NCBI RefSeq assembly: GCF_964031785.1
Contig: NZ_CAXIRE010000014.1
Coordinates: 59,927-123,926, forward strand
Direction of reading: 5' to 3'
Length of the DNA: 64,000 bases
Source of the DNA: Rheinheimera texasensis
Lineage (GTDB): Bacteria; Pseudomonadota; Gammaproteobacteria; Enterobacterales; Alteromonadaceae
The notes beneath the pieces are model-generated. The model had not been told where the DNA came from, did not search any database, and saw only the letters and a program-made list of their open reading frames with translations. Each line of letters opens with the position of its first letter. Position 1 is the stretch's first letter. A program made the translations under genes and the position numbers. This document shows, piece by piece, positions 20,918 through 49,905 of this stretch.

Positions 20918-21040
20918 ACAGGTTGTCCTGACAGAAGGAAACACAATGCCGGCTAGCATAGGGCAAGCGCGGGCTGGCAGGCAACCAGGTGTTGGTTCAG
21001 ACCCGACAGTCGGCGGCGCCAGCCTGACCAATGGCAAGTG

Positions 21041-21889
21041 TCATTGAGTAGGCTGGGCAACAGCAGCTGCGGGGGCTGTTTGCAGATAAGACATCGATAA
21101 ATAACGCTGATAAATCTCAGTGCCTTTATTGGCCTGCAACTGCTGCCACAAGGCGTCAGCGCTGGCGCGCTGCTGTTGGTAAAATTGCCGGCTGAACAGC
21201 AGATAACCGACATTTGAGTGCAAAGCCGGCGTCAGTACTTTCAGGCCTCGCTGCAGAATATTTGGCGACACTACGGATTGGCCGGCGATGTTACACAAAG
21301 TCGTGACCGCATGGACCCGTCCGGCCTGCAGCAGTTCTAAATCCATAGTGCCGGATAAGGTGTAGTGCATCAGCACTTGTTTTGGCCCAGGTACCAGCAG
21401 CGGCGCATAACCCAGCGGTCTTGCCACCACCAGACTATCGATACCGCTGACTTCATGGCCATTCCAGCGCCAGCTGCTGCCGACTTTTTGTACCAGGCAG
21501 GTTTGGTGTTCACTAAACGCACGGTGTGGATCAGGCTGGTTGTTCAGCATCGGATAGACGCCAATGTCTTCACGTTCGGGTCTGTAGCTGGCAACGACGG
21601 CGTCGGTTTCGCCTTGGTGCAGTTTGGCGAGGCACCGTTTCCATGGCCGGCGTTCCAGCTGCAGTCGGATACCAGACATTTTGCTGACCAGCAGCTGTAA
21701 GTGTTCGATCGTCGCGCCCGGATTGTCTTTAGGGACCAGCGCGCCCTGGCCGCGGTAATAAGGTTCGAGTGGTTTATCTTCGTAGCAAAACCGCAATACC
21801 ACTGCATTGGTGGCTGTTGTGTCATCTGCCAGCACGTCTATGGCAGTCAGGCTACAAAGCAGGCTCAACACAATTTTTATTCGCAGCAC
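21041..21889 (-). CDS. Orphan periplasmic solute-binding protein (family 3-like)
   Basis: Signal peptide, PWKRCL..L..GE.DA, GYLLFS; no permease or ATPase adjacent. Confidence 0.7.
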   Translation of the reverse strand: MLRIKIVLSLLCSLTAIDVLADDTTATNAVVLRFCYEDKPLEPYYRGQGALVPKDNPGATIEHLQLLVSKMSGIRLQLERRPWKRCLAKLHQGETDAVVASYRPEREDIGVYPMLNNQPDPHRAFSEHQTCLVQKVGSSWRWNGHEVSGIDSLVVARPLGYAPLLVPGPKQVLMHYTLSGTMDLELLQAGRVHAVTTLCNIAGQSVVSPNILQRGLKVLTPALHSNVGYLLFSRQFYQQQRASADALWQQLQANKGTEIYQRYLSMSYLQTAPAAAVAQPTQ

Positions 21890-22042: not shown

Positions 22043-23269
22043 TCATTTCTGCGGTTGTTGTAAAAAGGCCTTTAACTCAGGCGCTATCGTCTGAATATTC
22101 AATAATCCATCTAAGTGGCCCATCTGGCCGGGGATCTGCGACAGCTGGTTGGCTGTGCTGCGGGCGCCGTTAGTATCCAGCGCTTGCTGGCTTTGCTGCG
22201 CCATCAAAGGTGTCAGCAATAAGTCGCCCGCCGCTGGCAACCACAGTACCGGCGCTTTGATGTTTTTGATGGCTTGTTGCCAGTTGTCGCCCATGCCGGC
22301 ACGCCATAACTGCGAAGCGCGCACCAGATACAGCAAATGATTGGCGTCCTGCAGCGCGGCGCGCTGAGTGGCGACTGCCAGTAATTGATCAAGCGCAGTG
22401 AAACTGGCGCGGATATCCTGATGGGCGGCTTTGTCCAAGCGTAAATCCGGGTACTTCTGGTTAAAACCGGCTGGATTTAACGCATCTAAAGTCACCCAGG
22501 CCAGCGCCATGGCAAGCCCTGCAGTGGGTTGTTGCGGTTTGTCGTAATAATCGCCTTGTTGCCAGTGCGGATCGGCTTTAATCGGATAAGCCCAACGTTC
22601 TAACTTGATGGCGCTGTAAGCATCGATATAAGCAGTACCGATCACCGGCACCAGCCGCTGCACCCGCTCTGGGTAACGCTGCGCCCATTCAATCGCCTGA
22701 AAAGAACCCATCGAAGCACCGACTACTGCGTGTAGCTTGTTGATGCCAAGACTGTCTAACAATGCTTTTTGCACTTCAACAAAATCGGTGATGGTCACCA
22801 CCGGAAAGCTCAGGCCATATCTTTTACCTGTCGCCGGATTGATGCTGGCAGGGCCTGTGGTGATGACATGTGGATCATTGGCATTGGCATTGGCATTGAC
22901 CAATGTATCAACGCTAACCACATAAAACTGATTGGTATCAATGGCTTTGCCAGGACCAATGATGGCATCCCAATAACCGGGCGCTGCGTCTGTCGCCTGA
23001 TAACGGCCGGCTGCATGTGAAGTGCCGGAAAAATAATGCGTAATTAAAATCACATTCGATTTGTCAGTATTCAGCTTGCCATAGGCTTCCCAGCCGACTT
23101 GCACTTGCTTTAACTGCGCGCCGTTTTGCGTGATAAAAGTTGGCAGTTCAAAGCGCTGTTTTTGCACCAGCGGCAGTTCGGCGGCCTGACTGGCGGCAGC
23201 GCACAGCAGGCCCAACACCAGACTCGATAAAAACCAGCCGTATTTGATGAAATGTCGCATGCGAAACAA
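22043..23269 (-). CDS. Exported MetX(HTA)-fold alpha/beta hydrolase (E22-like esterase)
   Basis: Signal peptide ending ASQA, LITHYFSGTSHAAG, GYWD..IGPGKAIDT, GASMG Ser, GDLL Asp, GHLDG His. Confidence 0.85.
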   Translation of the reverse strand: MFRMRHFIKYGWFLSSLVLGLLCAAASQAAELPLVQKQRFELPTFITQNGAQLKQVQVGWEAYGKLNTDKSNVILITHYFSGTSHAAGRYQATDAAPGYWDAIIGPGKAIDTNQFYVVSVDTLVNANANANDPHVITTGPASINPATGKRYGLSFPVVTITDFVEVQKALLDSLGINKLHAVVGASMGSFQAIEWAQRYPERVQRLVPVIGTAYIDAYSAIKLERWAYPIKADPHWQQGDYYDKPQQPTAGLAMALAWVTLDALNPAGFNQKYPDLRLDKAAHQDIRASFTALDQLLAVATQRAALQDANHLLYLVRASQLWRAGMGDNWQQAIKNIKAPVLWLPAAGDLLLTPLMAQQSQQALDTNGARSTANQLSQIPGQMGHLDGLLNIQTIAPELKAFLQQPQK

Positions 23270-23286: not shown

Positions 23287-24588
23287 TTAAAACCACTGAA
23301 ACATTAAAATCGCCAGGCCAGTCCCGAGCGCCGGCACTACCACTGTCACTGCCGCGACGGGCCAATAAGCCTGCTGGTGACTTTCGCCACAAATGGCCCG
23401 GATGGTGGTGACCACATAACCGTTATGCGGCAGTGAATCCAAAGCACCGGATGAAATCGCCACCACACGGTGTAACTCTTCCGCGTCGACCCCCCGGTCC
23501 AGATAGACAGGCGCCAGTTCCGGCAGCGCAATGGCCTGACCGCCGGAGGCAGAGCCGGTAAGGCCAGCAATAGCACTGACCGCGACCGCAGCACCCAAGA
23601 GTTCTGGCCCAGGCAGATGGGTCATGGTTTGAACTATGTCGTTAAACGCAGGTGTTAGCTTGGCGACAGCACCAAAACCCACCACAGCCGCCGTGTTGCC
23701 GATGGCCAGCAGAGAGCCCAACACGCCTTCGTTAATGGCTTTATCCAGGCTTTGAATAAAACGCCGGTTCAGCACATACAGCGCCAGCACGCCGCCGCTC
23801 AGCGCTACGATGAGCGCCGCCTGCTGCAGACTATGATGCAGCCAGTTCGATAAACCCAGCACCACCAACAGCGGAATCAGGCCCATTAACGGATGCGGTA
23901 ACTTGCGGTCAGTCAGCTGCGGGTCGCTGTCGCGGCCAATAAAGACTTCACCTTGCGCCACGGCTTTGCGAATCATCTGACTTAACCAGGCATAACCAAA
24001 AGCGGCCATAAAAATCGCCACCACAATACTGACTTCCCAGCCGGCATAAGGCGAAGTGTGCAGATATTGAATAGGGATCCAGTTCTGGATTTCCGGCGAG
24101 CCGGCGGAAGTCATGGTAAAGGTTACTGAACCCAAACCCAGCGCGGCCGGAATAAAACGGCGCGGTAAGTTGGCGTCTTTAAACAAACTGACCGCCATCG
24201 GGTAGGCCGAAAACGCCACGACAAACACCGAGACACCACCATAGGTCAACACGGCACAAGCCAGCACCACAGCGGCAACGGCGTGCGCCCTGCCCAGTTT
24301 TTGCACAATCCATAAAGCGACAGCATCGGCGGCGCCGCTGTGTTCCATCAGTTTGCCGAACAGCGAACCTAACAAAAACATCAGAAACCAGGCGGCGACA
24401 AAACCGGAAAAACCGTTCATGTAAGCGTGGATAAAATCGGTATTACCACTGGCTTGCCAAAACGGAATACCGTTAGTGACAGCGACAAACAAGGCGCACA
24501 AAGGCGCCAAAATAAACAGGTTCAGCCCGCGCATCGTCAGCCAAATCAGCAGGCAGAGCCCGAGCAACAAGCCGGTTAAACTCAGCAT
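23287..24588 (-). CDS. GntP-family H+/monocarboxylate permease
   Basis: About 12 TM segments, GSLFGKLMEHSGAA, LTYGGVS.FVV.F, AGLTGSASGG, LDSLPHNG. Confidence 0.88.
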   Translation of the reverse strand: MLSLTGLLLGLCLLIWLTMRGLNLFILAPLCALFVAVTNGIPFWQASGNTDFIHAYMNGFSGFVAAWFLMFLLGSLFGKLMEHSGAADAVALWIVQKLGRAHAVAAVVLACAVLTYGGVSVFVVAFSAYPMAVSLFKDANLPRRFIPAALGLGSVTFTMTSAGSPEIQNWIPIQYLHTSPYAGWEVSIVVAIFMAAFGYAWLSQMIRKAVAQGEVFIGRDSDPQLTDRKLPHPLMGLIPLLVVLGLSNWLHHSLQQAALIVALSGGVLALYVLNRRFIQSLDKAINEGVLGSLLAIGNTAAVVGFGAVAKLTPAFNDIVQTMTHLPGPELLGAAVAVSAIAGLTGSASGGQAIALPELAPVYLDRGVDAEELHRVVAISSGALDSLPHNGYVVTTIRAICGESHQQAYWPVAAVTVVVPALGTGLAILMFQWF

Positions 24589-24616
24589 AAAAAAGTCCTT
24601 GCTTCGGTTTTTTCTG

Positions 24617-24690
24617 AGTCTGAGCCATCAGGCAGCGTATCTCTATAGTACTAAGGTACAGATTAACATTTCATCAGTTCAGCCTAAAGT
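24617..24690. promoter_or_regulatory. Back-to-back promoters sharing a central activator-type palindrome
   Basis: GTAC-TAAG-GTAC (24648-24659); 25 nt from it on each side lie -10-like hexamers CAGACT (minus, 24622-24617) and TAAAGT (plus, 24685-24690). Confidence 0.65.
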
Positions 24691-24858
24691 AAGGCTATCA
24701 GTCTGAGCGTTTTGTCACTGATTTGCCTGTGCCCCGATTTTTATGACAGCGGGTATTAAGCGGGTTAGTATCACAGCGAAACGCCCGGAGCAACTATAAC
24801 AAGTAACTGAAATAATTCAGAAAGATAAGTGATAGCCGAGATCAGCAGGAGATGCCCG

Positions 24859-27096
24859 ATGGCCCAGAATAACTATAAATTAAACCGTACCACTGACAAT
24901 TCGTTTAAACCGGCGCTGTTGGCGCTGACCATCAGCGCTGTGCTGGCAGGCCCTGTGTATGCACAGGATGCGGCAGCTGGCAAAGATGTCAAAAAAGAAG
25001 AAGCAGCACTGGAAGTGATCCAGGTCACGGCGCGACGCACTGCAGAAAACCTGCAATCGGTGCCGGTGGCGGTGACGTCGATTGGCGCCGAAGATTTAAA
25101 ACAAAAAGGTATCGAAAACCTGACGGCGATTCAACAGCAATCACCGAATACTACGCTGCAGGTGTCGCGCGGCACTAACAGCACTTTAACCGCCTATATT
25201 CGCGGTATTGGTCAGCAAGATCCGCTGTGGGGTTTTGAGCCTGGCGTCGGCATCTACATTGATGATGTGTACATGGCGCGTCCACAAGGCGCGGCAATGG
25301 ATATCTATGATGTCGAGCGCATTGAAGTATTACGCGGCCCGCAAGGTACTTTATACGGCCGTAACACTATCGGTGGCGCGGTGAAATATGTCACTAAGCC
25401 TTTGAGCGGTGAAGACGAGTTTGCTATTCGCGGCACTGTCGGCAGCTACCATCAGCGCGACTTAAAACTGTCTGGCCAGAAAGCCATTACTGACAAGCTG
25501 TCCATCGGTGGAGCCGGCGCATTTTACGACCGTGATGGTTTTGGTAAATACCTCAATACCGGCGCAGAAAACTACAACAAAGACATCATCACTGGTCGTT
25601 TCAGTGCGCAGTATCAGGCGCTGGACAATCTTCGTTTTAACTTTGCCTACGACAAAACCAAAGATGATTCCAATTCCAAAGGCGGCCACCGCTTAACGCC
25701 GAGTTTACTGACCAAAGAAACGCCGCCGTCGAATGTCTACGACTCCAACACCAGTATGCCGGCCACTAACATGGTCCGTACCGAAGGCCACTCACTGACA
25801 ATGGCCTGGGATATCAATGCCGACTGGACGATGAAAGCCATCACTGCCAAGCGTGAAGGCGTCACCGATACCAACATCGACTTTGACTCGACCAAACTGC
25901 CTTCGCTCGATGTGCCGGCGTTTTATGAAGATGAACAAACTTCACACGAATTGCAGTTCCTGTATAACAGTGGCCCGTTGAAGTTTGCGTCAGGCCTGTA
26001 TTCGTTTGAAGGCGACGCCTGTGGTGCCTTTGGTACTGTGCTGGTGTCTGGCCTTGGCGTGACCATCGAAAACGGTGGCTGTGTGCAAACGGATTCTTTT
26101 GCCGGTTATGCGCAGGGTACTTATCAGCTGAATGACCAGTGGTCGTTCACTTTGGGTGGTCGGTATACCGAAGACGACAAAGACGCCAACGTGTATCGTT
26201 ATGTGTATCTTGGCTACAAACTGCCACGCAATACCGCGACCAAAATCGGCACCCAGTCGGATTTTAAAGGCAGTGAAAGTTTCAGCCATTTCTCGCCACG
26301 TGTTGGTTTTGAATATCAGGCCAATGACAGCATGATGGTGTATGGCTCTTATACTGACGGCTTTAAATCCGGTGGTTTTGATATGCGTGGTAACCAGTCG
26401 GTCAACCCAAATGCCGGCGATCCGTACCAGCCAGAAACGGTCGATACTTATGAGCTGGGTCTGAAAAGCGAATGGCTGGACCGCCGGCTGCGTTTAAATG
26501 CCGCAGTGTTTGCCTCAGCTTATGATGATATGCAAGTGACAGTGCAACGTGCGGTGAATAACACTGTGGCATCACAAGTACTGAACGCCGCCAGCGCTGA
26601 TATCAATGGTATTGAGCTGGAAGCCACGGCGGTGGCCAGCGATGCCCTGCAATTTAACCTGATTGTTGGTTATACCGACGCCAAGTTTAACGAAGTGCTG
26701 TTTTATGATGCCGTGACTAAAACCACGTCAGACGTGTCTGGGTTATGGTCCTTTGCCAACACGCCAGAACTGACCGCGACTTTAGGCGGCAAATACACAG
26801 TGGCGATGTATGGCGGCGAACTGGTGCTGAATGCGAACTTGTCCCACCGCAGCGAAACGCAGATTTTTGAGCTGCCATCGATGCTGGACTACGGCGGTTA
26901 CACGTTGTTTAACGCCGGCGCCACCTGGTATTCCGCTGATGGCCACTGGGACGTGTCACTGCAGGGCCGTAACTTAGGCGATAAGATCACCCGCATCGCC
27001 GGTTACAACTTCCCGCTGCTGGCGGCCGAACAAACCATCACGGCCTATTATGGTGACCCAAGAACAGTGAGTTTGTCACTGGGTTACCGGTTCTGA
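24859..27096 (+). CDS. TonB-dependent receptor
   Basis: AGGAG RBS, signal peptide, TonB box EVIQVTARR, RIEVLRGPQGTLYGRNTIGGA, terminal GYRF. Confidence 0.95.
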   Translation: MAQNNYKLNRTTDNSFKPALLALTISAVLAGPVYAQDAAAGKDVKKEEAALEVIQVTARRTAENLQSVPVAVTSIGAEDLKQKGIENLTAIQQQSPNTTLQVSRGTNSTLTAYIRGIGQQDPLWGFEPGVGIYIDDVYMARPQGAAMDIYDVERIEVLRGPQGTLYGRNTIGGAVKYVTKPLSGEDEFAIRGTVGSYHQRDLKLSGQKAITDKLSIGGAGAFYDRDGFGKYLNTGAENYNKDIITGRFSAQYQALDNLRFNFAYDKTKDDSNSKGGHRLTPSLLTKETPPSNVYDSNTSMPATNMVRTEGHSLTMAWDINADWTMKAITAKREGVTDTNIDFDSTKLPSLDVPAFYEDEQTSHELQFLYNSGPLKFASGLYSFEGDACGAFGTVLVSGLGVTIENGGCVQTDSFAGYAQGTYQLNDQWSFTLGGRYTEDDKDANVYRYVYLGYKLPRNTATKIGTQSDFKGSESFSHFSPRVGFEYQANDSMMVYGSYTDGFKSGGFDMRGNQSVNPNAGDPYQPETVDTYELGLKSEWLDRRLRLNAAVFASAYDDMQVTVQRAVNNTVASQVLNAASADINGIELEATAVASDALQFNLIVGYTDAKFNEVLFYDAVTKTTSDVSGLWSFANTPELTATLGGKYTVAMYGGELVLNANLSHRSETQIFELPSMLDYGGYTLFNAGATWYSADGHWDVSLQGRNLGDKITRIAGYNFPLLAAEQTITAYYGDPRTVSLSLGYRF

Positions 27097-27250: not shown

Positions 27251-27898
27251 ATGATTGCCATTATTGCTGATGACCACCCGTTATTCCGTATTGCTTTATC
27301 GCAGGCACTGCAGACGATTCTTGGCCTTGAGGCCAGCCTGTATCAGGCGCACAGCATGGCGCAGTTGTGGCCTTTATTGCGCGAACATCCGGATACCCAA
27401 TTAATTCTGCTCGATCTGAAATTGCCGGATGCTGAAGGTTTTGCCGGTTTAACCGCGCTGCGTACTGAATATCCGGATATTTCTATTCTGATGGTGTCGG
27501 CGATTGAAGACCCGGCCGTGATTAAACAAGCGTTGCAATTAGGCGCTGCCGCTTATCTGCCCAAATCGGCGCCGCTGGACGTGTTAACCGAAGCGGTGGA
27601 CGCTGTGCTGGCGGGGGACACCTGGTTGCCGGCGGATTTACAACAAAGTGTGGCGCAGGCGCAGGATTTGATTGACGCCGAATTTGCCGGGCGGCTCGAG
27701 CAGCTGACGCCGCAACAATTTCGTGTGTTAAAAATGATTGCCGATGGTTTGCTGAATAAACAAATCGCTTATGAAATGAATGTGCAGGAAACCACCGTCA
27801 AGCAGCATGTGTCGGCGATTTTGCGCAAACTCAATGTCAATAATCGTACCCTGGCCGGGATCTTATTTGAAAAACTGAAACTTCCGGATACCCTGTAG
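27251..27898 (+). CDS. NarL/LuxR-family response regulator, CrbR/ErdR-like
   Basis: ADDHPLFR, LLDL phosphoacceptor, PKS; HTH LTPQQFRVL.MIADGLLNKQIAYE..V.ETTVK.HVSAILRKL. Confidence 0.9.
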   Translation: MIAIIADDHPLFRIALSQALQTILGLEASLYQAHSMAQLWPLLREHPDTQLILLDLKLPDAEGFAGLTALRTEYPDISILMVSAIEDPAVIKQALQLGAAAYLPKSAPLDVLTEAVDAVLAGDTWLPADLQQSVAQAQDLIDAEFAGRLEQLTPQQFRVLKMIADGLLNKQIAYEMNVQETTVKQHVSAILRKLNVNNRTLAGILFEKLKLPDTL

Positions 27899-27938
27899 CC
27901 TCTAACTGCCAGTCTTGAGTCTTCCGGGAGAGCGCCAG

Positions 27939-28517
27939 ATGCGCCGAATCACTTTGTTTGTCCTGTCTTGTTCCACTATGTTCAGTATTTTTCCCAGCCA
28001 TGCTACTCAGCTGCAGCCGCAAACCGGTCACTGGCGCAGTCAGCATCAGGTGCTGGTCAATGGCCAGGATATTCTGCAGCAGATGAAAGCACTGCAACAA
28101 CAAATGCTGGCGGCGGTGCCGGCGGAACAACGGGCTTTAGTCGCCGGTATGATGCCGAAAAAAGACTTAAGTACGGCGCAGGAATGTTTAACTGCGGCTG
28201 AAGTCGCGTTGTTAAAAACGCCGGAGCAATGGCTGGCCAGAGCCAAACAGCAGTTACCGCGTTGCCAGTTACAACTGACCGGCAGCACGACCAATTCGGT
28301 GTCAGTCAAAGGCCAGTGTCAGGATCAGGGCGGCTACACCGGCTCGTTGCAGGGCACTGTCACATTAAAAACACCGCAATGGATGCAGATGAACATGCAG
28401 GGCACCGGCCAGTACAAAATGCCGCTGCCGGGCCAGGCACAAAACGGTGACGTGCAGTTTAAACTCGATAGTGACTCGCGTTGGCAAAGTGCCAGCTGCC
28501 CGGCCGGTATGCGGTAA
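27939..28517 (+). CDS. Secreted DUF3617-like protein
   Basis: Signal peptide, TGHW, ECLT, four spaced cysteines ending RWQSASC. Confidence 0.6.
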   Translation: MRRITLFVLSCSTMFSIFPSHATQLQPQTGHWRSQHQVLVNGQDILQQMKALQQQMLAAVPAEQRALVAGMMPKKDLSTAQECLTAAEVALLKTPEQWLARAKQQLPRCQLQLTGSTTNSVSVKGQCQDQGGYTGSLQGTVTLKTPQWMQMNMQGTGQYKMPLPGQAQNGDVQFKLDSDSRWQSASCPAGMR

Positions 28518-28606
28518 GCCGGCGGGACTCGTCTGTTAACCTGATGTTGTGATTGAAATGTGTTTCCTGCATGCTGAAATCTTTCGCAGCAATACAGGAC
28601 AATCAG

Positions 28607-29833
28607 ATGACAACAGCAACATCAGGCAGCGCCGGCCAGCCCAGCTGGCAAAAAACACCGCAAACCGGTTTACAGGTCAATTCAGTGGCAGTCAGTCCGG
28701 ATGGTCAACTGACCGTTGGCGGCACCTCCAGCGAATTTGGCAGCGGGCAGTTTAATTTTTATGGCTTTGACGCGACTGGCCAGCAACTCTGGTCGGTGCC
28801 GGTTACCGCCGCCAACGTCACGCAGGGCATTTTCTGGGTCGCCGTCAGTGACGATAAACGTTTTGCCGCCTGTGGTGGCGAAACCAGTAAAACCTGTGGT
28901 TTTTTGTGTATCCTCGATGCCAGCACTGGCAGTATTCTGTTTCAGGATAACAACTTACCTGCCCGCGTCAATCAACTGACTTTCAGCAGTGACGGCACTT
29001 TGCTGCTGGCGGATTTCCAGCACGAATTACGCTTGTATCACTATGCCAGCGGCAGCACCTTGGTGCCGGTCTGGTCACTGAGTGACAGCTTGGCGCTTTC
29101 GGCCGACTTTTCCAGTTACAGCGCTGTGCTGGCGCCAAACGGCGGCCGGGTTTGGGTCGGCGCTATCAACTACAACGTGAAACCGGTCTACACCGGGCTG
29201 GTGCAGCAGATTGCGCTGGATAACGGCAAATTCGGCGCAGCAACCAGTTATCAGCAAGCACAAGGGGTGATGCGGGTGGTGACGACCACAGATGGCACTT
29301 ATGCCGCCGCGGCGTTACACGATGGCAGCTGCGCGTTTTTTCAGGCGGTACAGCCCAGCACAGCTTTTGTCTATAAACCGGCGCTGACCGGGCTTAATAT
29401 CGCCTATGCCATCGCCATCACTGAAACGCCAGCCAAAGAACTGGTGATAGTGGTCGGTGCTAACCAAGGCGAAGCCGGGGTGTTGTACCGGGTGGATGCA
29501 GAGCAAACAGCGTCTGAGATCGCCAACTATCCCATCTGGGGGCCAGTGCTGAAATGGAGCAAACCGGTGCAATATGCGGTGAATCCGGGCGTGACTTTAG
29601 ACGCTGCAGCAACCCTGGTCAGTGTCACTGACGGTAAACCGGATGAAAGCTCCGGCGGCAGCGATCAAAAGGAATCACCGGGTAACTTTTATCTGTTCGA
29701 CGCTTGCTCTGGGCAGCAACTGTGGCAATATGGCACCAAGCTGATGAACTGGCCAATGATGCTGACGCCGGACGGTAAAACCGCAGTGGGTGGCAGTGAT
29801 GATGGCAGTATTTATTACTGGAATTTGCAGTAA
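28607..29833 (+). CDS. Beta-propeller (WD40/PQQ-like) protein without signal peptide
   Basis: Repeated VAVSPDG / VAVSDD / TFSSDG / LTPDG blades, QQLWS and QQLWQY, GSDDGSIYYW. Confidence 0.7.
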   Translation: MTTATSGSAGQPSWQKTPQTGLQVNSVAVSPDGQLTVGGTSSEFGSGQFNFYGFDATGQQLWSVPVTAANVTQGIFWVAVSDDKRFAACGGETSKTCGFLCILDASTGSILFQDNNLPARVNQLTFSSDGTLLLADFQHELRLYHYASGSTLVPVWSLSDSLALSADFSSYSAVLAPNGGRVWVGAINYNVKPVYTGLVQQIALDNGKFGAATSYQQAQGVMRVVTTTDGTYAAAALHDGSCAFFQAVQPSTAFVYKPALTGLNIAYAIAITETPAKELVIVVGANQGEAGVLYRVDAEQTASEIANYPIWGPVLKWSKPVQYAVNPGVTLDAAATLVSVTDGKPDESSGGSDQKESPGNFYLFDACSGQQLWQYGTKLMNWPMMLTPDGKTAVGGSDDGSIYYWNLQ

Positions 29834-31303
29834 GTGAAACCTGAAGGTCTGGCCCAAGCGCCGCTGTTTGACCGCCAACGTTGGCAAGACCGGCTGCAGC
29901 AATCCTGGTTGCTGCGCAACCTGTTGTTATTGCTGCTGTGGCTGCTGGTGTTTGAGATCGGCTGGCTGGTGGAATATACCCATCACGCCAGTGTCTGGTA
30001 TCCGGTCGCGGGCCTGACTTTCGCATCGTTGTTATTACTGGGTTTTTCTGTGTTACCGGCCTTGTTGACAGGCTGCGTGCTTATCACTTTTTACACCGCC
30101 CGCCACTACAATATTCAGCTGCCGCCGTGGCAAATTCTCGAGGCCGGTTTGTTATTTGGCCTGGCGCATATTTTACCTTATGCCGTCGGTGCTATTGCCT
30201 TGCGCACGCTGGCCAAACGCGGCGCCCGCGATATTAGCCGGATCATCGTATCCTTCCTGGTGATTGCAGCCGTCAGTTCATTTTGTGCCACCTGGCTGGT
30301 GCTGCCGACTTTGGTGATCACTGACATGATGACGGAAGCTGAGATCGCCTCAACCTGGCTGCCGTTCTGGATTGGTGATATGGCCGGTGTCATGGTGCTG
30401 GCGCCGTTTTTTGTTGGCCTGCTGAGTCGGGTTTTACCTGGCGCGCTGTTTCGTCTGACCGATATGGCGGGCCTGCAACAGCAAAAGTTCAGCTCGCGTT
30501 ATCTGTTGAAACTGTTGCTGAACGGTCTGTTACTGACTGCATGCATGCTGCTGGCGAAAGTGACAGATTCACCAAACAGCGCTTTTGCGATTTTTTTCCT
30601 GGTGATCCCGCATATGTGGATCGCCTGTTCCGAATCGGCATTACTTAATGTCAGTAGTGTGGCGCTGTCGAGTTTCCTGATTGCCTTTTGGGTGCATCTG
30701 TTTGATTTGATGGACTATGTGATGGTCTATCAGTTTGCGATCAACGTCATTGCCGCGAACACCTTATTTGGCCTCGCCATTCCGACTTTATTGGCAGATA
30801 ACCTGCAACTGCGCAAAGTGGCTTTTACTGACAGCCTGACACAAGTGGCGTCCCGTGACCGGCTGGAGCAAAGGGCAACGCTTGAGATCAGCCGTAGCCG
30901 GCACGAACAGCGGCCTTTGTCGCTGTTGGTGTTTGATATCGATTATTTCAAAAAAATTAATGATGAGTTTGGTCACCATGTTGGCGATCAGGCGCTGCAG
31001 CAACTGGCGCGTTTAGCCCAGCTGTCGCTGCGACCGACGGATTTGCTTGGCCGTTTTGGCGGCGATGAATTTGTCGTGTTATTGCCACAAACCGCGCAGC
31101 CGGCCGCTTTGTTGATTGCCGAGCGGATTATCAGCGAATTACGCCAGGTCTACATCTGTGATGTCCATCCGCTGACCGCCAGTTTTGGCGTCGCGCAATT
31201 ACAGCCAGACGAAGATTACGAACGGCTGTTCCGCCGCGCCGACCGGGCTTTGTATCAGGCCAAGCTGGCCGGGCGCAATCAGGCTTGTGTCGCGGCCGAC
31301 TAA
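29834..31303 (+). CDS. MASE1-GGDEF diguanylate cyclase
   Basis: Multi-TM N-terminus with WYPVAG and WIGDMAG, TDSLT, DIDYFKKINDEFGH..GD, RPTD I-site, intact GGDEF. Confidence 0.9.
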   Translation: MKPEGLAQAPLFDRQRWQDRLQQSWLLRNLLLLLLWLLVFEIGWLVEYTHHASVWYPVAGLTFASLLLLGFSVLPALLTGCVLITFYTARHYNIQLPPWQILEAGLLFGLAHILPYAVGAIALRTLAKRGARDISRIIVSFLVIAAVSSFCATWLVLPTLVITDMMTEAEIASTWLPFWIGDMAGVMVLAPFFVGLLSRVLPGALFRLTDMAGLQQQKFSSRYLLKLLLNGLLLTACMLLAKVTDSPNSAFAIFFLVIPHMWIACSESALLNVSSVALSSFLIAFWVHLFDLMDYVMVYQFAINVIAANTLFGLAIPTLLADNLQLRKVAFTDSLTQVASRDRLEQRATLEISRSRHEQRPLSLLVFDIDYFKKINDEFGHHVGDQALQQLARLAQLSLRPTDLLGRFGGDEFVVLLPQTAQPAALLIAERIISELRQVYICDVHPLTASFGVAQLQPDEDYERLFRRADRALYQAKLAGRNQACVAAD

Positions 31304-31320
31304 AGATTTAACCCCGGCGC

Positions 31321-34300
31321 TCAGCGCAGCAGGCGTTGCAGCAACCGCTTCAGATTGGCCGGTTTGAGTGGTTTCAGCATAAAGTGAAAGCCGTTATTCA
31401 GTGCATGGTCGCGGGTTTGTTGTTGTTGATCGGCGGAATGGATTAACACCGGCACCTGCAACGCATAATGCTGCTGCAGTTGCATCGCCACTTCGACACC
31501 GGTCGCGCCCTGGTCCAGATGATAATCAAACAACAATAAATCCACCGGATGACCTTCGCTGAGCCAATGCAGCGCCTGAGAAGGCTGCTGCGCCACCAGT
31601 ACCTGACAATCCCAGCTTCTGAGCAATGCCGCGACCGCGCCGGATAATTGCGGGTCGTTATCGAGCAATAAGATTGTTTTACCGCGGAAACTGACCGACT
31701 GCTCACGTGGTTGCAGCGCAGGTGCTGCAGTCGCGCCCGATGCACAGACCGGCACTGTCACGGCAAAACAGCTGCCTTTGCCTGGTTCGGAGTGCAAAGT
31801 CAGCGCATGCTGCAGCAAATCGCTGATGCGCTGGCTGATGGCAAGACCAATGCCAAGGCCCTGATTATTCGCTTCTTTACCCTGCTGAAATTCCTGAAAA
31901 ATCCGTTGTTGTTCATCCGGACTGATGCCGACGCCGGTATCCCAGACTTCAATCCGCACCGCCGGCAGCCCTTGCCAGTGGCAGCGCCGGCAGCCCAACA
32001 GGATTTTGCCTTGTGGGGTGTACCGCAGGGCGTTGGCGACCAGATTCTGCACCACACGGCGTAGCAGACGGCTGTCAGTATCCACCCAAAGCCGGCTTGG
32101 CCGGTAGCGGAAACGAATCGGTTTACCGGTTGAGATTAAGCCGGCTTCGCGGGCGATTTGGTCCAGCAGGCTGGTCATTGCTACCGGCGCTTTTTGCGCT
32201 TTAATCACGCCGGCATCCAGTTTGGTCAGTTCCAGAATACCGGCCAGGAGTTCTTCAGCGGAATTTAACGACGCCGCTAAATCTTTCGCCAGTTGCTGCA
32301 CCTGGCCATCGCTGCTTTTCTCGCGGATCAGCCCGCAAAATAATGCGGCGGCATTAAAGGGTTGCAGCAAATCGTGGCTGGCTGCAGCAAAAAAACGGTT
32401 TTTGCTGGCGGTTTGTTCTTCCAGCTGTTGTTTGGCGGCGGCCAATTGTTGATTAAGTTGCTCCAGCTCGGCGGTGCGGCTCATCACCCGTTGCTCCAGC
32501 GTGCTGTTACTGGCTTCGAGCTGTTGTTGCACCTCGATAAAAGAGCTGACATCGCTGTAGGTTGTAACAAAACCACCGCCCGGCAGCGGATGGCCCTGCA
32601 TCTCAAACACCCGGCCGTCGCGCTGGCGGCGCTGAAAACGATAACTGCTGCCCTGGCGTAAAAAATTCAGCCGTTTTTCTACTTCGGCGCTGATTTGCGT
32701 GGCATCGGGTAGGGCACTGTCATGGAACCAGCCGCGTTCGGCGTTATAACGAATTAAATCCGCGACCGGCCGGCCTACTTCAATCAGGCCAGGCGGATAA
32801 GCAAACATCTGCAGATAACGTTGGTTCCAGGCGATCAGGCGTAAATCGGCGTCCACCACGCTGATGCCCATACTGATATTGTCGATAGTGGCGCGCAGCA
32901 GCGCCTGATTAAACAGATAGACCTGACTGGCTTCGTCGACAAAACGCGCGACAGATTCCAGCGGCAGCTGACTGTTTTTGCCGGCGGCGTTCAGTAACAA
33001 CCGCATCGAAGCACCGCCAACCACAGCTGCCAGCGTACGCTCTGTGCTTTGCTGCAGCGCTTGTGGCGCGCGCGTCTCCAGCTGAGGTGAAACCGATTTA
33101 AACTGACGCTGCAGCAATAAGCGCGCTTCACGCTCGCCGGCAAAACGCCGCACCAGCAGATAACAATCCTGTACTGTCAGCTGTGGCGCCACCTGTTGCG
33201 GTTTTGACTGGCTCTGGCGGAAAAAACGTGCACTTTCCAGATACTCCGTCAGCCGGGTGTGGCTGAGCTGACTGACCAGCAACAGCAGCAAGGTATTCAT
33301 GCTCAGACTGACCACCACCCCGAGGCTTATCAGATCAAACTGGCCACCGAGCAAGGCATTGGGCGCCAACGCCTGCCAGCCAAAAGGCCCCTGGCTCAGC
33401 CAGTCCCAGCGGATTAAACCGGCGCGGCTTAATTCCGGTAACAACAGAATGTAGGCCCACAAACTGGCGCCGCAGAGTAAACCGGCCAAAGCGCCCTGAC
33501 GATTGACCCGGCGGTTCAGCAGGCCAAAAATCAGCGCCGGTGCCAGCTGGGCAATTAACGCAAAGGCCATCAGGCCAAGCTGAGCCAGACCGGTTTCAGT
33601 GCCAATCAATAAGTAGTACAGATAGCCCAGCGTCAGCACGCTTAACATCGATAAACGGCGCAGCGTCACCATGCGGATCCAGGGTTTGCCGTCGGCCGGT
33701 TTCTGCTGCTGGCGGTATATCAGTGGCGTCAGTAAGTCGTTGGTGATCATAATGCCAAGCACCACAGTGGCGACTATCACCATACTGGTGGCAGCAGAAA
33801 AACCACCTAAGTAAGCCAGCAGTGCCATATCGGTGCGATTCGCCGACAGCGGCAGCTGCAACACCACTAAATCGATGCTGGCGCTCTGGCCCAGTAACAA
33901 AGTACCGGCCAGTGCCACCGGCAATGTAAACAGGCTCATCAGCAGTAAATAGCCGGGGAAGATCCAACGCGCATAGCGCAGATGACCCAAATGCTGGATC
34001 TCAACAAAACTGACGTGAAACTGGCGCGGCAGGCATAAAGTCGCGACAAAACCGAGCAAGACGTGGATCCAATACACTGACCAGGGCGCGCCCTGACTTT
34101 GCAGCTGCTGGACGTCGGCTGAGACGGCTGCCTTGGCAAAAATATCGCTAAAACCATCAAACAGCCCAAACACGACAAAAAATCCGACGGCCAGCAGTGC
34201 TAATAATTTCACCAGCGATTCAAAGGCAATAGCCGTCATCAGGCCGGGATTGGGCTGATGCGCTTTGGCGCTGCGACCGACAAATAACATGGCAAATATC

Positions 34301-34833
34301 GCCAGCCATAAGCTGACGTAAAGCCCGGTGTCCTGATACCAGGGCCCGCCGCTGCTGCTGCCGACCAAGGCGTTGATACTGGTCGACACCGCCTGTAGCT
34401 GCAAAGCGATATAAGGAATAACCGCCATCAACACGATGAGTGTGGTGATCACGGCTAATAAGCGGGAATGCCCATAGCGGGTGGCGATAAAGTCGGCGAC
34501 TGAAGTGATACGTAAACGCCGGCAGACAATAGCGATGCGGCTAATCAGGCCAAACGCGAACCAGAACAACAACAAAGAACCGATATAAGTCGGCGGGATC
34601 CACCAGCCATTGACTGCGGCCTGCGCGGTCACGCCATAAAAGGCCCAGCTGGTACAGTAGATGGCGAGGGCAAAACTAAACACCCAGGGCGCGAGCGGAT
34701 GGCGGCCAGTCAGACGCCGGCCGAGCAGCCCGACGCTGTACAGTACCGCCAGATACAGCAGCGACAGCACGGCTATGCTGCCAATGCCAATGCTGCCCTG
34801 ACTCAGAATCATTTCAGAATTTACCGCATTCAC
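31321..34833 (-). CDS. SLC5 symporter-fused hybrid histidine kinase (CrbS/MxtR-like)
   Basis: 13-TM SLC5 region (AIYCTSWAFYG, PYIALQL, LPRQFHV, GGFSAATSMVIV), PAS, SHDLLQP His box, DTGVGI / GLGIGL, C-terminal REC (LFDYHLD); alternative start 34812. Confidence 0.92.
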   Translation of the reverse strand: MNAVNSEMILSQGSIGIGSIAVLSLLYLAVLYSVGLLGRRLTGRHPLAPWVFSFALAIYCTSWAFYGVTAQAAVNGWWIPPTYIGSLLLFWFAFGLISRIAIVCRRLRITSVADFIATRYGHSRLLAVITTLIVLMAVIPYIALQLQAVSTSINALVGSSSGGPWYQDTGLYVSLWLAIFAMLFVGRSAKAHQPNPGLMTAIAFESLVKLLALLAVGFFVVFGLFDGFSDIFAKAAVSADVQQLQSQGAPWSVYWIHVLLGFVATLCLPRQFHVSFVEIQHLGHLRYARWIFPGYLLLMSLFTLPVALAGTLLLGQSASIDLVVLQLPLSANRTDMALLAYLGGFSAATSMVIVATVVLGIMITNDLLTPLIYRQQQKPADGKPWIRMVTLRRLSMLSVLTLGYLYYLLIGTETGLAQLGLMAFALIAQLAPALIFGLLNRRVNRQGALAGLLCGASLWAYILLLPELSRAGLIRWDWLSQGPFGWQALAPNALLGGQFDLISLGVVVSLSMNTLLLLLVSQLSHTRLTEYLESARFFRQSQSKPQQVAPQLTVQDCYLLVRRFAGEREARLLLQRQFKSVSPQLETRAPQALQQSTERTLAAVVGGASMRLLLNAAGKNSQLPLESVARFVDEASQVYLFNQALLRATIDNISMGISVVDADLRLIAWNQRYLQMFAYPPGLIEVGRPVADLIRYNAERGWFHDSALPDATQISAEVEKRLNFLRQGSSYRFQRRQRDGRVFEMQGHPLPGGGFVTTYSDVSSFIEVQQQLEASNSTLEQRVMSRTAELEQLNQQLAAAKQQLEEQTASKNRFFAAASHDLLQPFNAAALFCGLIREKSSDGQVQQLAKDLAASLNSAEELLAGILELTKLDAGVIKAQKAPVAMTSLLDQIAREAGLISTGKPIRFRYRPSRLWVDTDSRLLRRVVQNLVANALRYTPQGKILLGCRRCHWQGLPAVRIEVWDTGVGISPDEQQRIFQEFQQGKEANNQGLGIGLAISQRISDLLQHALTLHSEPGKGSCFAVTVPVCASGATAAPALQPREQSVSFRGKTILLLDNDPQLSGAVAALLRSWDCQVLVAQQPSQALHWLSEGHPVDLLLFDYHLDQGATGVEVAMQLQQHYALQVPVLIHSADQQQQTRDHALNNGFHFMLKPLKPANLKRLLQRLLR

Positions 34834-34880: not shown

Positions 34881-35633
34881 CTAGCGCGCCGTCCAGCCAC
34901 CGTCGAGCACCAGCGTTTGCGCCGTGATATGGCGGGCCGCGGCTGTGGTCAGAAACACTGCGGTTGCGGCAATTTCATCGACGCCAATAAAGGCTTTTTG
35001 TGGCATTGGCGCCAGCATGATTTTTTCGATGACTTCGGTTTCGCTGAGCTGATGTTCTTTGCACTGAGCAGCAATTTGCGCATCTACCAATGGCGTACGC
35101 ACATAAGCCGGGCAGATAGTATTGATAGTGAAATCAATATCAGCGTTCTCCAGTGCTACCACTTTACTAAAGCCAAGCAAACCGTGTTTGGCCGCGACAT
35201 AAGCCGACTTAAACGGCGAGGCGACTAAGGCGTGAATAGAGCCGATGTTCACAATCCGGCCAAAACCGCGGCTGCGCATGCCTGGCAATAAGGCTTTACT
35301 CAGCATCGCCGGGCCGGTCAGCATCACCTGTAACAGCTGCTGCCATTTGTGTTCCGGAAATTCTTCCAGGCGCGCCACGTGCTGGATACCGGCGTTATTG
35401 ACCAATACATCCACCTGGCCTGCGGCTGCAGCGGTATTTTCAATACTGTCCTGAGAGGTTAAATCCAGCAGCAACGCGCTGGCTTTGGCGCCGCTGGCGA
35501 TCAGTTCTGCCGCTTTTTGTTCGGCGACGGCCAGATTAATATCGGCCAGGATCACTTCGTCGCCCTGAGCGGCATACGCCTGTGCCACCGCAAAGCCAAT
35601 ACCGCCGCTGCCGCCTGTGATCAGTACCCGCAT
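34881..35633 (-). CDS. bdhA: D-3-hydroxybutyrate dehydrogenase
   Basis: TGGSGGIG, NNAGIQHV, SPFKSAYVAAKHG, ICPAYVRTPLVDAQI, MPQKAF, DGGWTA: HBDH subfamily signatures. Confidence 0.9.
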   Translation of the reverse strand: MRVLITGGSGGIGFAVAQAYAAQGDEVILADINLAVAEQKAAELIASGAKASALLLDLTSQDSIENTAAAAGQVDVLVNNAGIQHVARLEEFPEHKWQQLLQVMLTGPAMLSKALLPGMRSRGFGRIVNIGSIHALVASPFKSAYVAAKHGLLGFSKVVALENADIDFTINTICPAYVRTPLVDAQIAAQCKEHQLSETEVIEKIMLAPMPQKAFIGVDEIAATAVFLTTAAARHITAQTLVLDGGWTAR

Positions 35634-35666: not shown

Positions 35667-35713
35667 AGGGTAGAAGTTTGCGGTCAGGCGGTAAACGGTA
35701 CTTTAGTGCTATA
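35667..35713 (-). promoter_or_regulatory. bdhA promoter with the shared palindrome
   Basis: Minus strand TATA-GCACTAAAGTAC-cg-TTTACC-17 nt-TACCCT. Confidence 0.65.
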
Positions 35714-36047
35714 CCGCTGAATGGTTGGCAACAGTCGGTGAAAATAACAACAGCAGTGCAATTAACTCAGACTCTTCACGCATGTAAATTCAAATTAGAT
35801 AGCAGAGAAACTCAGACACAGCCGTTCATAGCGCTGAGCGCTCAGAAAACCGCACAAGACTTTGCCAGAACCCATATCTATGATATGTTTCGGCACATAA
35901 TAAAAAAATTATCTTGTGCTTCCCACGCAGTTTAGACCGTAAAAAACTCTTGATAACAATGTGTTGTGCCATTGTTTCGCGTTAAGTCGGAAAAAGTCCT
36001 GCTCAGTTGCACTTCATTCTGTAGACCTGTCACGTAAGGAATTCTGC

Positions 36048-37298
36048 ATGCAGACTTCAACCGCATTGATCACCAACGACGCCGTCGTGCTCGGCCTGTT
36101 GGCGCTTATTTTAGGCTTTGTGTTTCATACCAGTGCCAGTAACCATCCGTTCTGGCAGAAGTTTTATAAATACGTGCCTTCGGTATTGTTGTGTTATTTC
36201 ATTCCGTCGTTGTTTAACACTTTCGGCATTATCGATGGCGATACCTCAAAACTCTATGAGATGGCGTCGCGTTATCTGTTACCAGTCTGCTTAGTGCTTT
36301 TGACACTGAGCATTGATTTTAAAGCTATTTTAGGACTCGGCCCTAAGGCACTGGCGTTGTTTCTGACCGGTACCGTCGGTGTTGTGCTCGGTGGCCCCAT
36401 TGCGCTTGCGACTGTGGGTACTTTCTTCCCTGAGCAAATGGGCGGTGAAGGCGCTGATGCGGTCTGGCGTGGTATGGCAACTATCGCTGGTAGCTGGATC
36501 GGCGGCAGTGCCAACCAGGCGGCGATGAAAGAAGTGTTTCAGCCGAGTGGCGAAATCTTCTCGGTGATGATCACTGTCGATGTAGTCGTCGCAAATTGCT
36601 GGATGGCGATCCTGTTGTGGATGGCGGCCAATGCGTCCCGTATTGATCAGGCCAATGGCGCTGATACCCGTGCCATTGAAGCGTTAAAAAGCAAAATCGA
36701 AAAGTACCAGGCGGAAAATTCGCGTAATCCGTCTACGTCAGATTTGATTAAATTACTGGCTGTTGGTTTTGGTTTGGCCGGTGTTGCACATTGGTTGTCA
36801 GACTATATCGTGCCATTTATCAAAACCCATGCGCCGGAACTGGCGATGTACAGCCTGACCAGCAGTTTCTTCTGGATTGTGGTGCTTGCGACGACTTTTG
36901 GTTTGTTATTGTCCTTTACCAAAGCGCGGGAACTGGAATCAGTCGGCGCGTCTAAAGTCGGCTCTGTGCTGGTGTATGTGCTGGTCGCCAGTATCGGGAT
37001 GCATATGGATATCACCGCAGTGGTGGATTATCCGGTGATGTTCCTGGCCGGTGTGGTTTGGATTTCGTTCCACGGTTTACTGATGTTTGGCATGTTACGC
37101 CTGTTAAAAGCACCGGCGTTTTATATGGCTGTCGGTAGTCAGTCGAATATCGGTGGTGCAGCGTCAGCTCCTATTGTTGCAGCAGCTTTCCATCCGGCGT
37201 TAGCGCCTGTTGGTGTGTTGCTGGCGGTATTAGGTTATGCGCTTGGCACTTATGGCGGTTACCTGTCAGCATTAATTATGCAGTCGATTGCGCCTTAA
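36048..37298 (+). CDS. DUF819-family membrane protein
   Basis: AAGGA RBS, about 11 TM, GSWIGGSANQAAM, SQSNIGGAASAPIVAAAF, LGYALGTY. Confidence 0.85.
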   Translation: MQTSTALITNDAVVLGLLALILGFVFHTSASNHPFWQKFYKYVPSVLLCYFIPSLFNTFGIIDGDTSKLYEMASRYLLPVCLVLLTLSIDFKAILGLGPKALALFLTGTVGVVLGGPIALATVGTFFPEQMGGEGADAVWRGMATIAGSWIGGSANQAAMKEVFQPSGEIFSVMITVDVVVANCWMAILLWMAANASRIDQANGADTRAIEALKSKIEKYQAENSRNPSTSDLIKLLAVGFGLAGVAHWLSDYIVPFIKTHAPELAMYSLTSSFFWIVVLATTFGLLLSFTKARELESVGASKVGSVLVYVLVASIGMHMDITAVVDYPVMFLAGVVWISFHGLLMFGMLRLLKAPAFYMAVGSQSNIGGAASAPIVAAAFHPALAPVGVLLAVLGYALGTYGGYLSALIMQSIAP

Positions 37299-49592: not shown

Positions 49593-49800
49593 TATTAATC
49601 CTGTTGCAAAAGATGGTACATTAGTACCACAGTTCCTTTTTAAAGCGATGCTGCTCAGTCGTTACAACAGGATGACTGGTCTAACTCGCTGATTTTTATT
49701 TTGTTTTACTGGAAGCAGCAGCTGCTGCGTGAATTTCCAGTCTGATTTTTAATCAGGGGTCTTGTTATTTGTCAAAATTATTATATGCTGAACTGAAAAA

Positions 49801-49816: not shown

Positions 49817-49905
49817 AAATAAAAATGCCGGTTTTTTCAACAGCGCTGAAAATGGGGCTGGGAACAGGGCACTGACAGCCGCAAGGTGTGCAACGAGGGT
49901 GCTTG

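Follow-up and report, generated by a model that had tools for sequence, protein, structure and literature searches.

A 64,000-nt stretch of the Rheinheimera texasensis genome (C14:59927-123926 of assembly GCF_964031785.1, 4.69 Mb in 25 contigs; hereafter the window, numbered from its first base) encodes a hybrid sensor kinase with an SLC5 transporter domain and an ErdR-like response regulator. We propose that these form a second pair, paralogous to the acetate switch CrbS/CrbR (MxtR/ErdR), which controls a regulon for external 3-hydroxybutyrate (3HB) and its oligomers, not for acetate; on the sequence comparisons given below we put the probability that the pair controls this regulon at about 0.7. 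The kinase and its relatives are a real, conserved and probably undescribed subfamily of SLC5-fused two-component systems for 3HB and other breakdown products of polyhydroxybutyrate (PHB); a literature search, which was not exhaustive, returned no description of a 3HB-linked SLC5 kinase. An earlier note, made from the window sequence alone, had suggested a CrbS-type paralogue tied to a non-acetate carboxylate, and this is supported by a separate kinase clade, by neighbourhoods rich in 3HB genes, by an operator upstream of the 3-hydroxybutyrate dehydrogenase gene bdhA, and by a near match in phyletic pattern with BdhA. The two computational checks suggested in that note, a phylogeny against acs-linked kinases and a look for a separate acs-linked copy in the genome, both speak for it.

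The sensor kinase and its linkage to bdhA

The kinase gene (31321..34833, minus strand) specifies 1170 aa with the domain order SLC5-(STAC)-PAS-HisKA-HATPase-REC. Domain scans place SSF at residues 47-455 (PF00474, 23.5 bits against a cut-off of 22.8), PAS_7 at 650-769 (122.9 bits), HisKA at 810-875 (37.7 bits), HATPase_c at 920-1029 (84.4 bits) and Response_reg at 1054-1164 (51.7 bits), each over its cut-off. Residues 19-470 of the SLC5 part align to the cryo-EM chain of the CbrA SLC5-STAC region (10ED, E=5e-54). No model matched the STAC position (residues ~521-640), where the phmmer alignment to 10ED has already ended at 470 and identity to family members is 25-34%. With its SLC5 domain followed by PAS, HisKA, HATPase_c and receiver, the protein fits the SLC5/STAC hybrid kinase superfamily (CrbS/CbrA/RpuS).

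Just upstream on the same strand lies bdhA (34881..35633), whose 250-aa product scores 324.9 bits with TIGR01963 (cut-off 307.05). Alignment to the Pseudomonas fragi dehydrogenase (HBDH, 1WMB) shows that it keeps S142/Y155/K159, which we take to be the catalytic triad of short-chain dehydrogenases/reductases (SDRs), and Q94/H144/K152/Q196, presumably the carboxylate-binding residues of HBDH. The gap to the kinase is 47 nt if translation starts at GTG 34833, or 68 nt if at the in-frame ATG 34812; the open reading frames and domain scans thus agree with the earlier note on this arrangement. No terminator-like or promoter-like site was detected in the gap. In a metagenome locus (L046) bdhA overlaps the kinase start, and in all congener loci whose recovered sequence includes this flank (L015-L035) it immediately precedes the kinase. 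We propose that bdhA is the first gene of a bdhA-kinase operon, the two genes being presumably co-transcribed. Since the gap lacks a terminator and the genes overlap in L046, positive autoregulation of the kinase through the bdhA promoter fits the sequence.

The window holds no homologue of acs or of a VC_2705/ActP-type symporter by tblastn, as the earlier note had also stated. A separate acs-linked copy is present on another contig, so that the window pair is not the only CrbS/R pair of the genome. A whole-genome search found this second full-length kinase, 38% identical to that of the window, at C24:440731-444240, divergent from genes for a VC_2705-family symporter (TIGR03648, 874 bits), a DUF294/CBS protein and an exonuclease; about 6 kb beyond, acs (NF001208, 1050 bits) and an ErdR-like regulator gene are immediate neighbours. 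GAC-N4-GTC sites occur upstream of acs (AGACTAATGTCT) and in the symporter/kinase intergenic region (CGACTTTAGTCG), and both fit the ACTU motif published for CrbR targets, e.g. TACGACTAAAGTCTAAA (PMC5715377).

A separate clade that tracks BdhA

In a maximum-likelihood tree of 28 kinases, all 14 linked to bdhA, GntP-like or TonB-dependent receptor (TBDR) genes fall in one clade (SH-aLRT support 97), and every acs- or symporter-linked kinase falls outside it. The 14 are spread over Rheinheimera, Pseudoalteromonas, Thalassotalea, a metagenome and three further families of the order. The tree was enlarged to 184 sequences with 150 representatives of 50%-identity clusters, drawn from a search of 1.84 billion proteins; here a 53-row clade with support 99 contains all 3HB-linked kinases, and the remaining 131 rows contain all acs-linked ones. 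The window kinase, placed in this separate clade by both trees, is not an orthologue of the acs-linked CrbS.

Among the database matches, proteins of Rheinheimera, Arsukibacterium, Alkalimonas and Alishewanella show 61-98% identity, and those of Pseudoalteromonas and Thalassotalea 42-46%. A kinase of the window type is found, alongside one of the acs type, in 23 of 24 congeners; the genomes G037, G039 and G041 (Thalassotalea) likewise have one kinase of each kind apiece, with the neighbours expected. BdhA (E<=1e-70) is encoded in 26 of 41 related genomes, all 26 of which have a clade kinase (24 from the Rheinheimera group, plus G037 and G039). The only congener without the kinase, G004, is also missing BdhA, and genomes with acs-type kinases only have no BdhA. 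Most of these genomes are close relatives, and the pattern therefore reflects a few independent events, not 41.

Conserved neighbourhoods and the predicted uptake route

At 14 or more separate loci, clade members have as neighbours bdhA, genes for a GntP-like permease and a TonB receptor, and a gene for either a 3HB-oligomer hydrolase of family PF10605 (3HBOH) or an E22-family esterase. The bdhA-kinase arrangement occurs in every Rheinheimera-group locus recovered. Pseudoalteromonas L044 has the order kinase .. TBDR - regulator - TBDR <-> GntP-like permease - E22-like esterase, and L046 has bdhA overlapping the kinase start, then regulator <-> GntP-like - esterase. Genome G037 has TBDR <-> GntP-like - kinase .. 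regulator - bdhA <-> PF10605, and G039 has bdhA <-> regulator .. kinase - GntP-like <-> TBDR .. esterase. Deep-branching members (L074-L080) were chosen from the large tree; L079 is too short for its gene order to be judged. Among the others we observed BdhA <-> 3HBOH .. TBDR <-> GntP-like - kinase (L074); 3HBOH, a TRAP (tripartite ATP-independent periplasmic) transporter, kinase, regulator, DcaP porin and BdhA (L075); TBDR <-> GntP-like - 3HBOH - kinase, regulator (L076), with BdhA following the regulator in L077; regulator, GntP-like <-> TBDR, kinase, 3HBOH <-> BdhA (L078); and GntP-like - kinase, regulator (L080). PF10605 is thus found at five of the deep-branching loci (L074-L078). Six of six SDRs tested from clade loci reach a curated 3-hydroxybutyrate dehydrogenase cut-off.

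A peculiar locus is that of Thalassotalea sediminis (L048, in G041): its clade kinase is separated from the regulator-TBDR module by IS110-family transposase genes and a fragment of a phage integrase. Within 10 kb there is no gene for a GntP-like permease, an esterase or BdhA, and the locus may be disrupted.

The corresponding genes of the window lie on the far side of the regulator. The GntP-like carboxylate permease (23287..24588, minus strand) has weak PF02447 and TIGR00791 matches, and its orthologues, 64-78% identical, adjoin clade kinases in Pseudoalteromonas, L046, G037, G039 and Rheinheimera; GntP-like genes are also present at L074, L076, L077, L078 and L080. From this linkage we propose it as the 3HB importer. 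The divergent TBDR (24829..27096, plus strand; Plug and TonB_dep_Rec_b-barrel domains) has homologues beside clade kinases or regulators at L044, L048, L051, L054, L056, L074, L076, L077 and L078, and is proposed to take up 3HB oligomers.

Downstream of the permease is a MetX-like esterase of the E22 family (22043..23269, minus strand), with 559.5 bits to NF005262 (cut-off 450), 413 bits to PDB 5JKF 'Esterase E22' (E=1e-122), and a Sec signal peptide ending ...AASQA/AELP. An E22-like esterase also follows the GntP-like permease in L044 and L046, a family member is present at L056, and the position is the one that PF10605 occupies in deeper clade members. Neither this genome nor any of the 24 congeners searched has a PF10605 gene. 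The E22 esterase may be a non-orthologous replacement of the oligomer hydrolase, and we propose that it hydrolyses 3HB oligomers or esters in the periplasm. We know of no established natural substrate for the structurally solved E22 esterases, and a literature search for the publication on esterase E22 found none; occurrence at the PF10605 position, together with the absence of PF10605 from 25 Rheinheimera-group genomes, suggests 3HB oligomers as the natural substrate of the family.

No class I polyhydroxyalkanoate (PHA) synthase was found in the genome, which, with the exported esterase and the TonB receptor, points to an external supply of 3HB and not to mobilization of the cell's own PHB. 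The 3-oxoacid CoA-transferase genes scoAB (C21:336450-337857) are the last genes of an operon (C21:331054-337857) that resembles one for leucine/isovalerate catabolism, as judged by the size and order of its reading frames only. No acetoacetyl-CoA synthetase scored above cut-off in the genome, and ScoAB is the only route of acetoacetate activation found.

Two further genes lie downstream of the esterase. An exported protein of 282 aa (21041..21889, minus strand) has a signal-peptide-like N-terminus and gave no match in Pfam and NCBIfam scans; it possibly belongs to the permease-esterase operon. An S9-family Dpp5-like peptidase (18887-21037) scores 43 bits, below cut-off, with the catalytic-domain model of extracellular short-chain-length PHA depolymerases. 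An S9 peptidase is also found near Pseudoalteromonas L044, but the window one is probably unrelated to the 3HB locus.

Operators and promoters

The 12-mer GYACTAARGTAC occurs exactly twice in the 4.69-Mb genome, and both copies are in the window. Operator 1 (GTACTAAGGTAC, 24648..24659) is in the region from which the permease and TBDR genes diverge, and operator 2 (GCACTAAAGTAC read towards bdhA, 35698..35709, minus strand) lies 76 nt upstream of the bdhA start; each has TATA on its 5' flank. Allowing one mismatch, the window has four matches against 0.42 expected, and none of 100 shuffles reached four. Nearly all Rheinheimera-group loci, L035/L070 excepted, have this 12-mer or a one-base variant of it 64-111 nt before bdhA, and GTACTATAGTAC lies at -79 upstream of bdhA in G037. 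Between the permease and TBDR genes, GTAC-N4-GT(A/G)C sites occur in Pseudoalteromonas, L046, G037, G039 and Rheinheimera G007 and G018, and TAC-N4-GTA palindromes recur in promoter regions of L074, L075, L077, L078 and L080. The extended consensus of the clade operator can be written as yATA-GYAC-TAWR-GTAC, and the acs and symporter promoters of the same genomes have [AC]GAC-TWWN-GTC[TG] instead.

The repeat keeps a fixed spacing to putative promoters: a conserved -10-like hexamer lies 25 nt after it at the bdhA, TBDR and permease genes. For bdhA this hexamer, ~25 nt downstream of operator 2, is TACCCT here and TAGCCT, TAGCAT or TAACCT elsewhere (TAnnnT); for TBDR it is TAAAGT or TAGAGT; and for the permease it is CAGACT, with the same spacing in L068, L046 and L080. 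Transcription is predicted to start ~7 nt beyond TACCCT, TAAAGT and CAGACT. A sigma-70-like TBDR promoter, TTAACA-16-TAAAGT (24663..24690, plus strand; 9/12 matches), abuts operator 1, whose center would then lie at ~-43. The ACTU motif at Pseudomonas fluorescens acs spans -52 to -36 (PMC5715377), which is the same position.

Within the permease/TBDR intergenic region (24589-24828) a single palindrome stands midway between the CAGACT and TAAAGT hexamers, 25 nt from each, so that one site appears to serve both divergent promoters in this genome; G007 and G018 have two copies. A relaxed genome-wide search with GYAC-NWWN-GTRC gave 48 sites. Of the eight that are intergenic, two are those of this locus and the others have no obvious 3HB gene beside them; we propose no further regulon members. 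One site a single mismatch from the operator (GTACTAATGTAC, 49616-49627) lies between a gene for an N-acetylglucosaminidase-like protein (46980-49592, minus strand) and nagK (49888-50832, plus strand); it is probably a chance match or a NagR-type site, not a 3HB operator. On the other side of operator 2 from bdhA, and divergent from it, is a gene for a DUF819 membrane protein (35961..37298, plus strand; PF05684, 329.8 bits). It is kept next to bdhA in congeners, a linkage confined to the Rheinheimera group; a promoter-like site of its own is present at 35862-35889, operator 2 being 263 nt upstream of its start, and its membership in the regulon is uncertain.

The ligand pocket and the site of sensing

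The cryo-EM structure of CbrA shows Y51, S53, W55, A56, F71 (the gate), Y75, F248 and F406 around bound histidine, with K196 at the Na2 site (PMC13022988). By two independent alignments, the corresponding residues of the window kinase are Y59, T61, W63, A64, I79, Y83, G261, F424 and K209; the acs-linked paralogue has Y, T, W, T, Y, Y, A, F and K at the same positions. Thus CbrA A56 and F248 correspond to A64 and G261 in the window kinase, and to T and A in its paralogue. Residue counts for 46 clade sequences and 128 others extend the comparison. Position 64 is A in 32/46 of the clade and T in 119/128 of the others; position 71 is Q in all 46 and variable in the others; position 82 is T in 42/46 versus I in 117/128; position 86 is T, A or S, never Pro, in the clade versus P in 127/128; and position 261 is G in 45/46 versus A or S in 121/128. 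Both groups share an unvarying W63 and K209. With smaller side chains at two of its positions, the clade pocket would suit a ligand larger than acetate, and we tentatively suggest that 3HB is read in the SLC5 pocket, a proposal for which we claim somewhat less than even odds.

The same regulon might be governed by a signal perceived outside the pocket, either a cytoplasmic cue of 3HB catabolism (acetoacetate, acetoacetyl-CoA, or redox state via PAS) or transport flux, in which case the pocket differences would reflect transport specificity or drift. The SLC5 domain of CbrA was reported to be non-essential for signal perception, with cytoplasmic sensing suggested (PMC9100948), and a 2026 MxtR preprint argues that SLC5 may be dispensable and sensing perhaps cytoplasmic; both count against pocket sensing, and the best-conserved part of the kinases is PAS_7, with 54% and 51% identity within the two clades and 45% between them. 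Yet the five clade-specific residues cluster within and next to the break/gate of transmembrane helix 2 (TM2) and at the F248 equivalent, and are near-invariant in 46 diverse sequences, which drift would not yield; also, the MxtR preprint cites Pokhrel et al. 2026 for the finding that short-chain fatty acids (SCFAs) shift the thermostability of AcmS, the MxtR orthologue of Acinetobacter baumannii. We regard a signal outside the pocket as rather unlikely.

Perhaps the inducer of this locus is not monomeric 3HB but a 3HB dimer or trimer, or acetoacetate, which the earlier note had also considered. A conserved core of TBDR, hydrolase and permease does point to oligomers as what enters. Against this, the TM2 break, which contacts the carboxylate, is kept (T61, W63) and the modest enlargement of the pocket suits a small monocarboxylate, while L075 and L080 have a permease or TRAP transporter and no TBDR; we find this alternative unlikely.

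The response regulator and its helix

The regulator (27251..27898, plus strand; 215 aa, NarL/LuxR-type, with Response_reg and GerE domains) is proposed as the partner of the kinase. Its best NCBIfam match is ErdR, NF041830, at 229.5 bits, missing the cut-off of 390; this is an 'exception'-type model built around Pseudomonas ErdR, and the acs-linked regulator on C24 is likewise under its cut-off at 198.9 bits. The earlier note had correctly placed an ErdR-like regulator near the kinase, with the qualification that the two do not adjoin: the genes are convergent and 3.4 kb apart, with three genes between them (27915..31303, plus strand) for DUF3617, beta-propeller and MASE1-GGDEF diguanylate cyclase proteins, which lie outside the conserved core. 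The full set of three is found only in the closest congeners; the GGDEF gene is also in L032, and they were not detected in the other loci examined. In L030, L035, L046, L076, L077 and L079 the regulator abuts the kinase, and in most other loci the two are close. Adjacency in L030 and L035 marks the three intervening genes as a lineage-specific insertion. They are on the regulator's strand and downstream of it in this lineage only; the cyclase (29834-31303) could provide a cyclic di-GMP output coupled to the 3HB regulon.

Recognition helices differ with the operators. Regulators of 3HB-type loci read ...NvQETTvKQHVSAIL..NRTxAG, and those of acs-type loci ...vSEATvKAHxTAIF..NRTQvV. With the deeper loci included, E-(T/R)-T versus E-(A/G)-T is the sole helix position that tracks a TAC versus GAC operator in every case seen; a simpler 'Q versus A' rule was dropped, being broken by L075, L077 and L078. 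L076 is the only 3HB-type locus with a GAC-type intergenic site (AGACCATGGTCC), and the helix of its adjacent regulator is acs-like (AEGTIKAHVT). This is a metagenome locus (ENA ERZ23500053) with the clade kinase within the TBDR <-> GntP-like - 3HBOH operon, and may represent a regulator swap or reversion.

Besides that of the window, the genome has two further ErdR-like regulators, on C24 and C7. The latter (C7:50382-52284; NF041830, 168 bits) is beside a 648-aa NahK/ErcS-like hybrid kinase that lacks SLC5 and has 39% identity to residues 754-1169 of the window kinase, which brings the ErdR-type pairs of the genome to three. The window kinase might therefore signal elsewhere, for example to the C7 regulator, as three unrelated genes separate it from its presumed partner, the regulator tree is weakly resolved, and how phosphate passes from the receiver of a hybrid CrbS-type kinase to a regulator is not established for any member of the family. 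This is very improbable: the regulator immediately adjoins the kinase in the six loci listed above, and the C7 regulator has a NahK/ErcS-like kinase of its own.

Already disfavoured, with the slightest chance of any explanation considered here, is a redundant or cross-talking acetate or SCFA sensor lying by chance next to a bdhA that is under the acs-linked CrbR or another regulator: the pairs do share their architecture, ~38-44% identity and an AC-TAAR-GT operator core, but the outer half-site base differs consistently (T/C versus G) across many genomes, the window operator has no exact copy at the acs locus, clade and 3HB neighbourhood are kept together across several families of the order and metagenomic relatives, and BdhA and the kinase have been lost together in G004.

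Proposed mechanism

Control of a 3HB regulon by the window pair is proposed to work as follows. Oligomers of 3HB, freed from PHB by other organisms, would pass the outer membrane via the TBDR and be split in the periplasm by the exported esterase; the GntP-like permease would bring in 3HB, which BdhA would convert to acetoacetate for activation by ScoAB, encoded elsewhere. The kinase would detect 3HB or a close relative, most likely in the SLC5 substrate pocket, and hand its phosphate to the LuxR-type regulator. The phosphorylated regulator, acting presumably as an activator rather than a repressor, would bind yATA-GYAC-TAWR-GTAC centered at ~-43 and switch on the bdhA, TBDR and permease promoters. 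With the kinase after bdhA and no terminator between, and the regulator after TBDR, induction would lift the sensor's own level, a positive feedback.

Several observations weigh against this scheme, besides the published doubts about SLC5 sensing. By our estimate about two exact copies of a 12-mer are expected by chance in 9.4 Mb (both strands), so that the significance of the operators rests on their location and conservation, not on their count. No operator was found directly upstream of the regulator gene. The covariation of helix and operator has exceptions, L078 having a KAH helix and a TAC operator. The regulator tree is poorly resolved, too weak to prove one clade, and in it the regulators of the PF10605 loci L076 and L077 group apart from the others. 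G038 carries a clade kinase and has no BdhA at E<=1e-70. Finally, the route beyond acetoacetate is not visibly co-regulated, as scoAB ends a leucine-type operon and no operator was found near it.

A broader proposal, which we offer only tentatively, is that the specificity of SLC5-fused kinases is set in the transporter pocket. The clade would then be a natural switch from acetate sensors, made by a few substitutions in or near the residues that touch the ligand in CbrA (T to A at 64, I to T at 82, P to S/T/A at 86, A/S to G at 261) and matched by the one-base change of half-site from GAC to TAC and by the change of helix, insulating the two pathways at three levels; E22 esterases would be periplasmic 3HB-oligomer hydrolases.

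Significance and relation to known systems

The signal of CrbS/MxtR-type kinases, and where it is perceived, is still unresolved (PMC9100948; 2026 MxtR preprint). Here a single genome holds two paralogues that differ in their conserved regulons, in their operators and in a few clade-specific residues at positions homologous to the CbrA ligand pocket, and so offers a natural comparison of signal choice. If our proposal is right, swapping these residues should make an acetate sensor respond to 3HB and so settle where the signal is perceived. The locus set, comprising TBDR, oligomer hydrolase or E22 esterase, GntP-like permease and BdhA, would be a widespread locus, akin to polysaccharide utilization loci, for PHB breakdown products in aquatic Gammaproteobacteria, relevant to bioplastic turnover, and it provides a proposed physiological substrate for structurally solved E22 esterases.

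The closest known system is CrbS/CrbR (MxtR/ErdR), the acetate switch of Vibrio cholerae and Pseudomonas spp., which also responds to propionate in P. alloputida. The window pair shares its domain order (SLC5, PAS_7, HisKA, HATPase, REC), a NarL/LuxR regulator matching ErdR best, and an xAC-N4-GTx inverted-repeat operator just upstream of a sigma-70 promoter, centered at ~-43/-44. It differs in belonging to a separate clade without linkage to acs or actP, with another helix and other pocket residues; its operator half-site is TAC/CAC (GTAC/GCAC-type), not GAC, and its presumed regulon consists of bdhA, GntP-like permease, esterase or PF10605 hydrolase, and TBDR.

RpuS/RpuR of Sinorhizobium fredii NGR234 is a SLC5/STAC hybrid kinase and LuxR regulator for pyruvate, present beside CrbS/R in that genome (PMC9100948). 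By its description it too is a second pair for another monocarboxylate that controls an adjacent transporter operon, and as a precedent for a non-acetate SLC5/STAC pair it lowers the categorical novelty of ours; it differs in its signal, pyruvate, in its MctP symporter target and in its alphaproteobacterial host. CbrA/CbrB of Pseudomonas has a homologous SLC5 domain (the alignment to 10ED above), with the Na2-site lysine K196 conserved as K209 and the TM2-break motif kept, whereas CbrA lacks a receiver, works with the sigma-54 activator CbrB, binds histidine and requires the CbrX peptide. HbcR of Pseudomonas aeruginosa, a sigma-54 enhancer-binding protein that controls bdhA for growth on 3HB and is encoded next to bdhA and a GntP-family permease gene, is likewise a dedicated regulator at such a locus; it is a cytoplasmic one-component activator, whereas the system proposed here is a membrane-bound, SLC5-fused two-component one.

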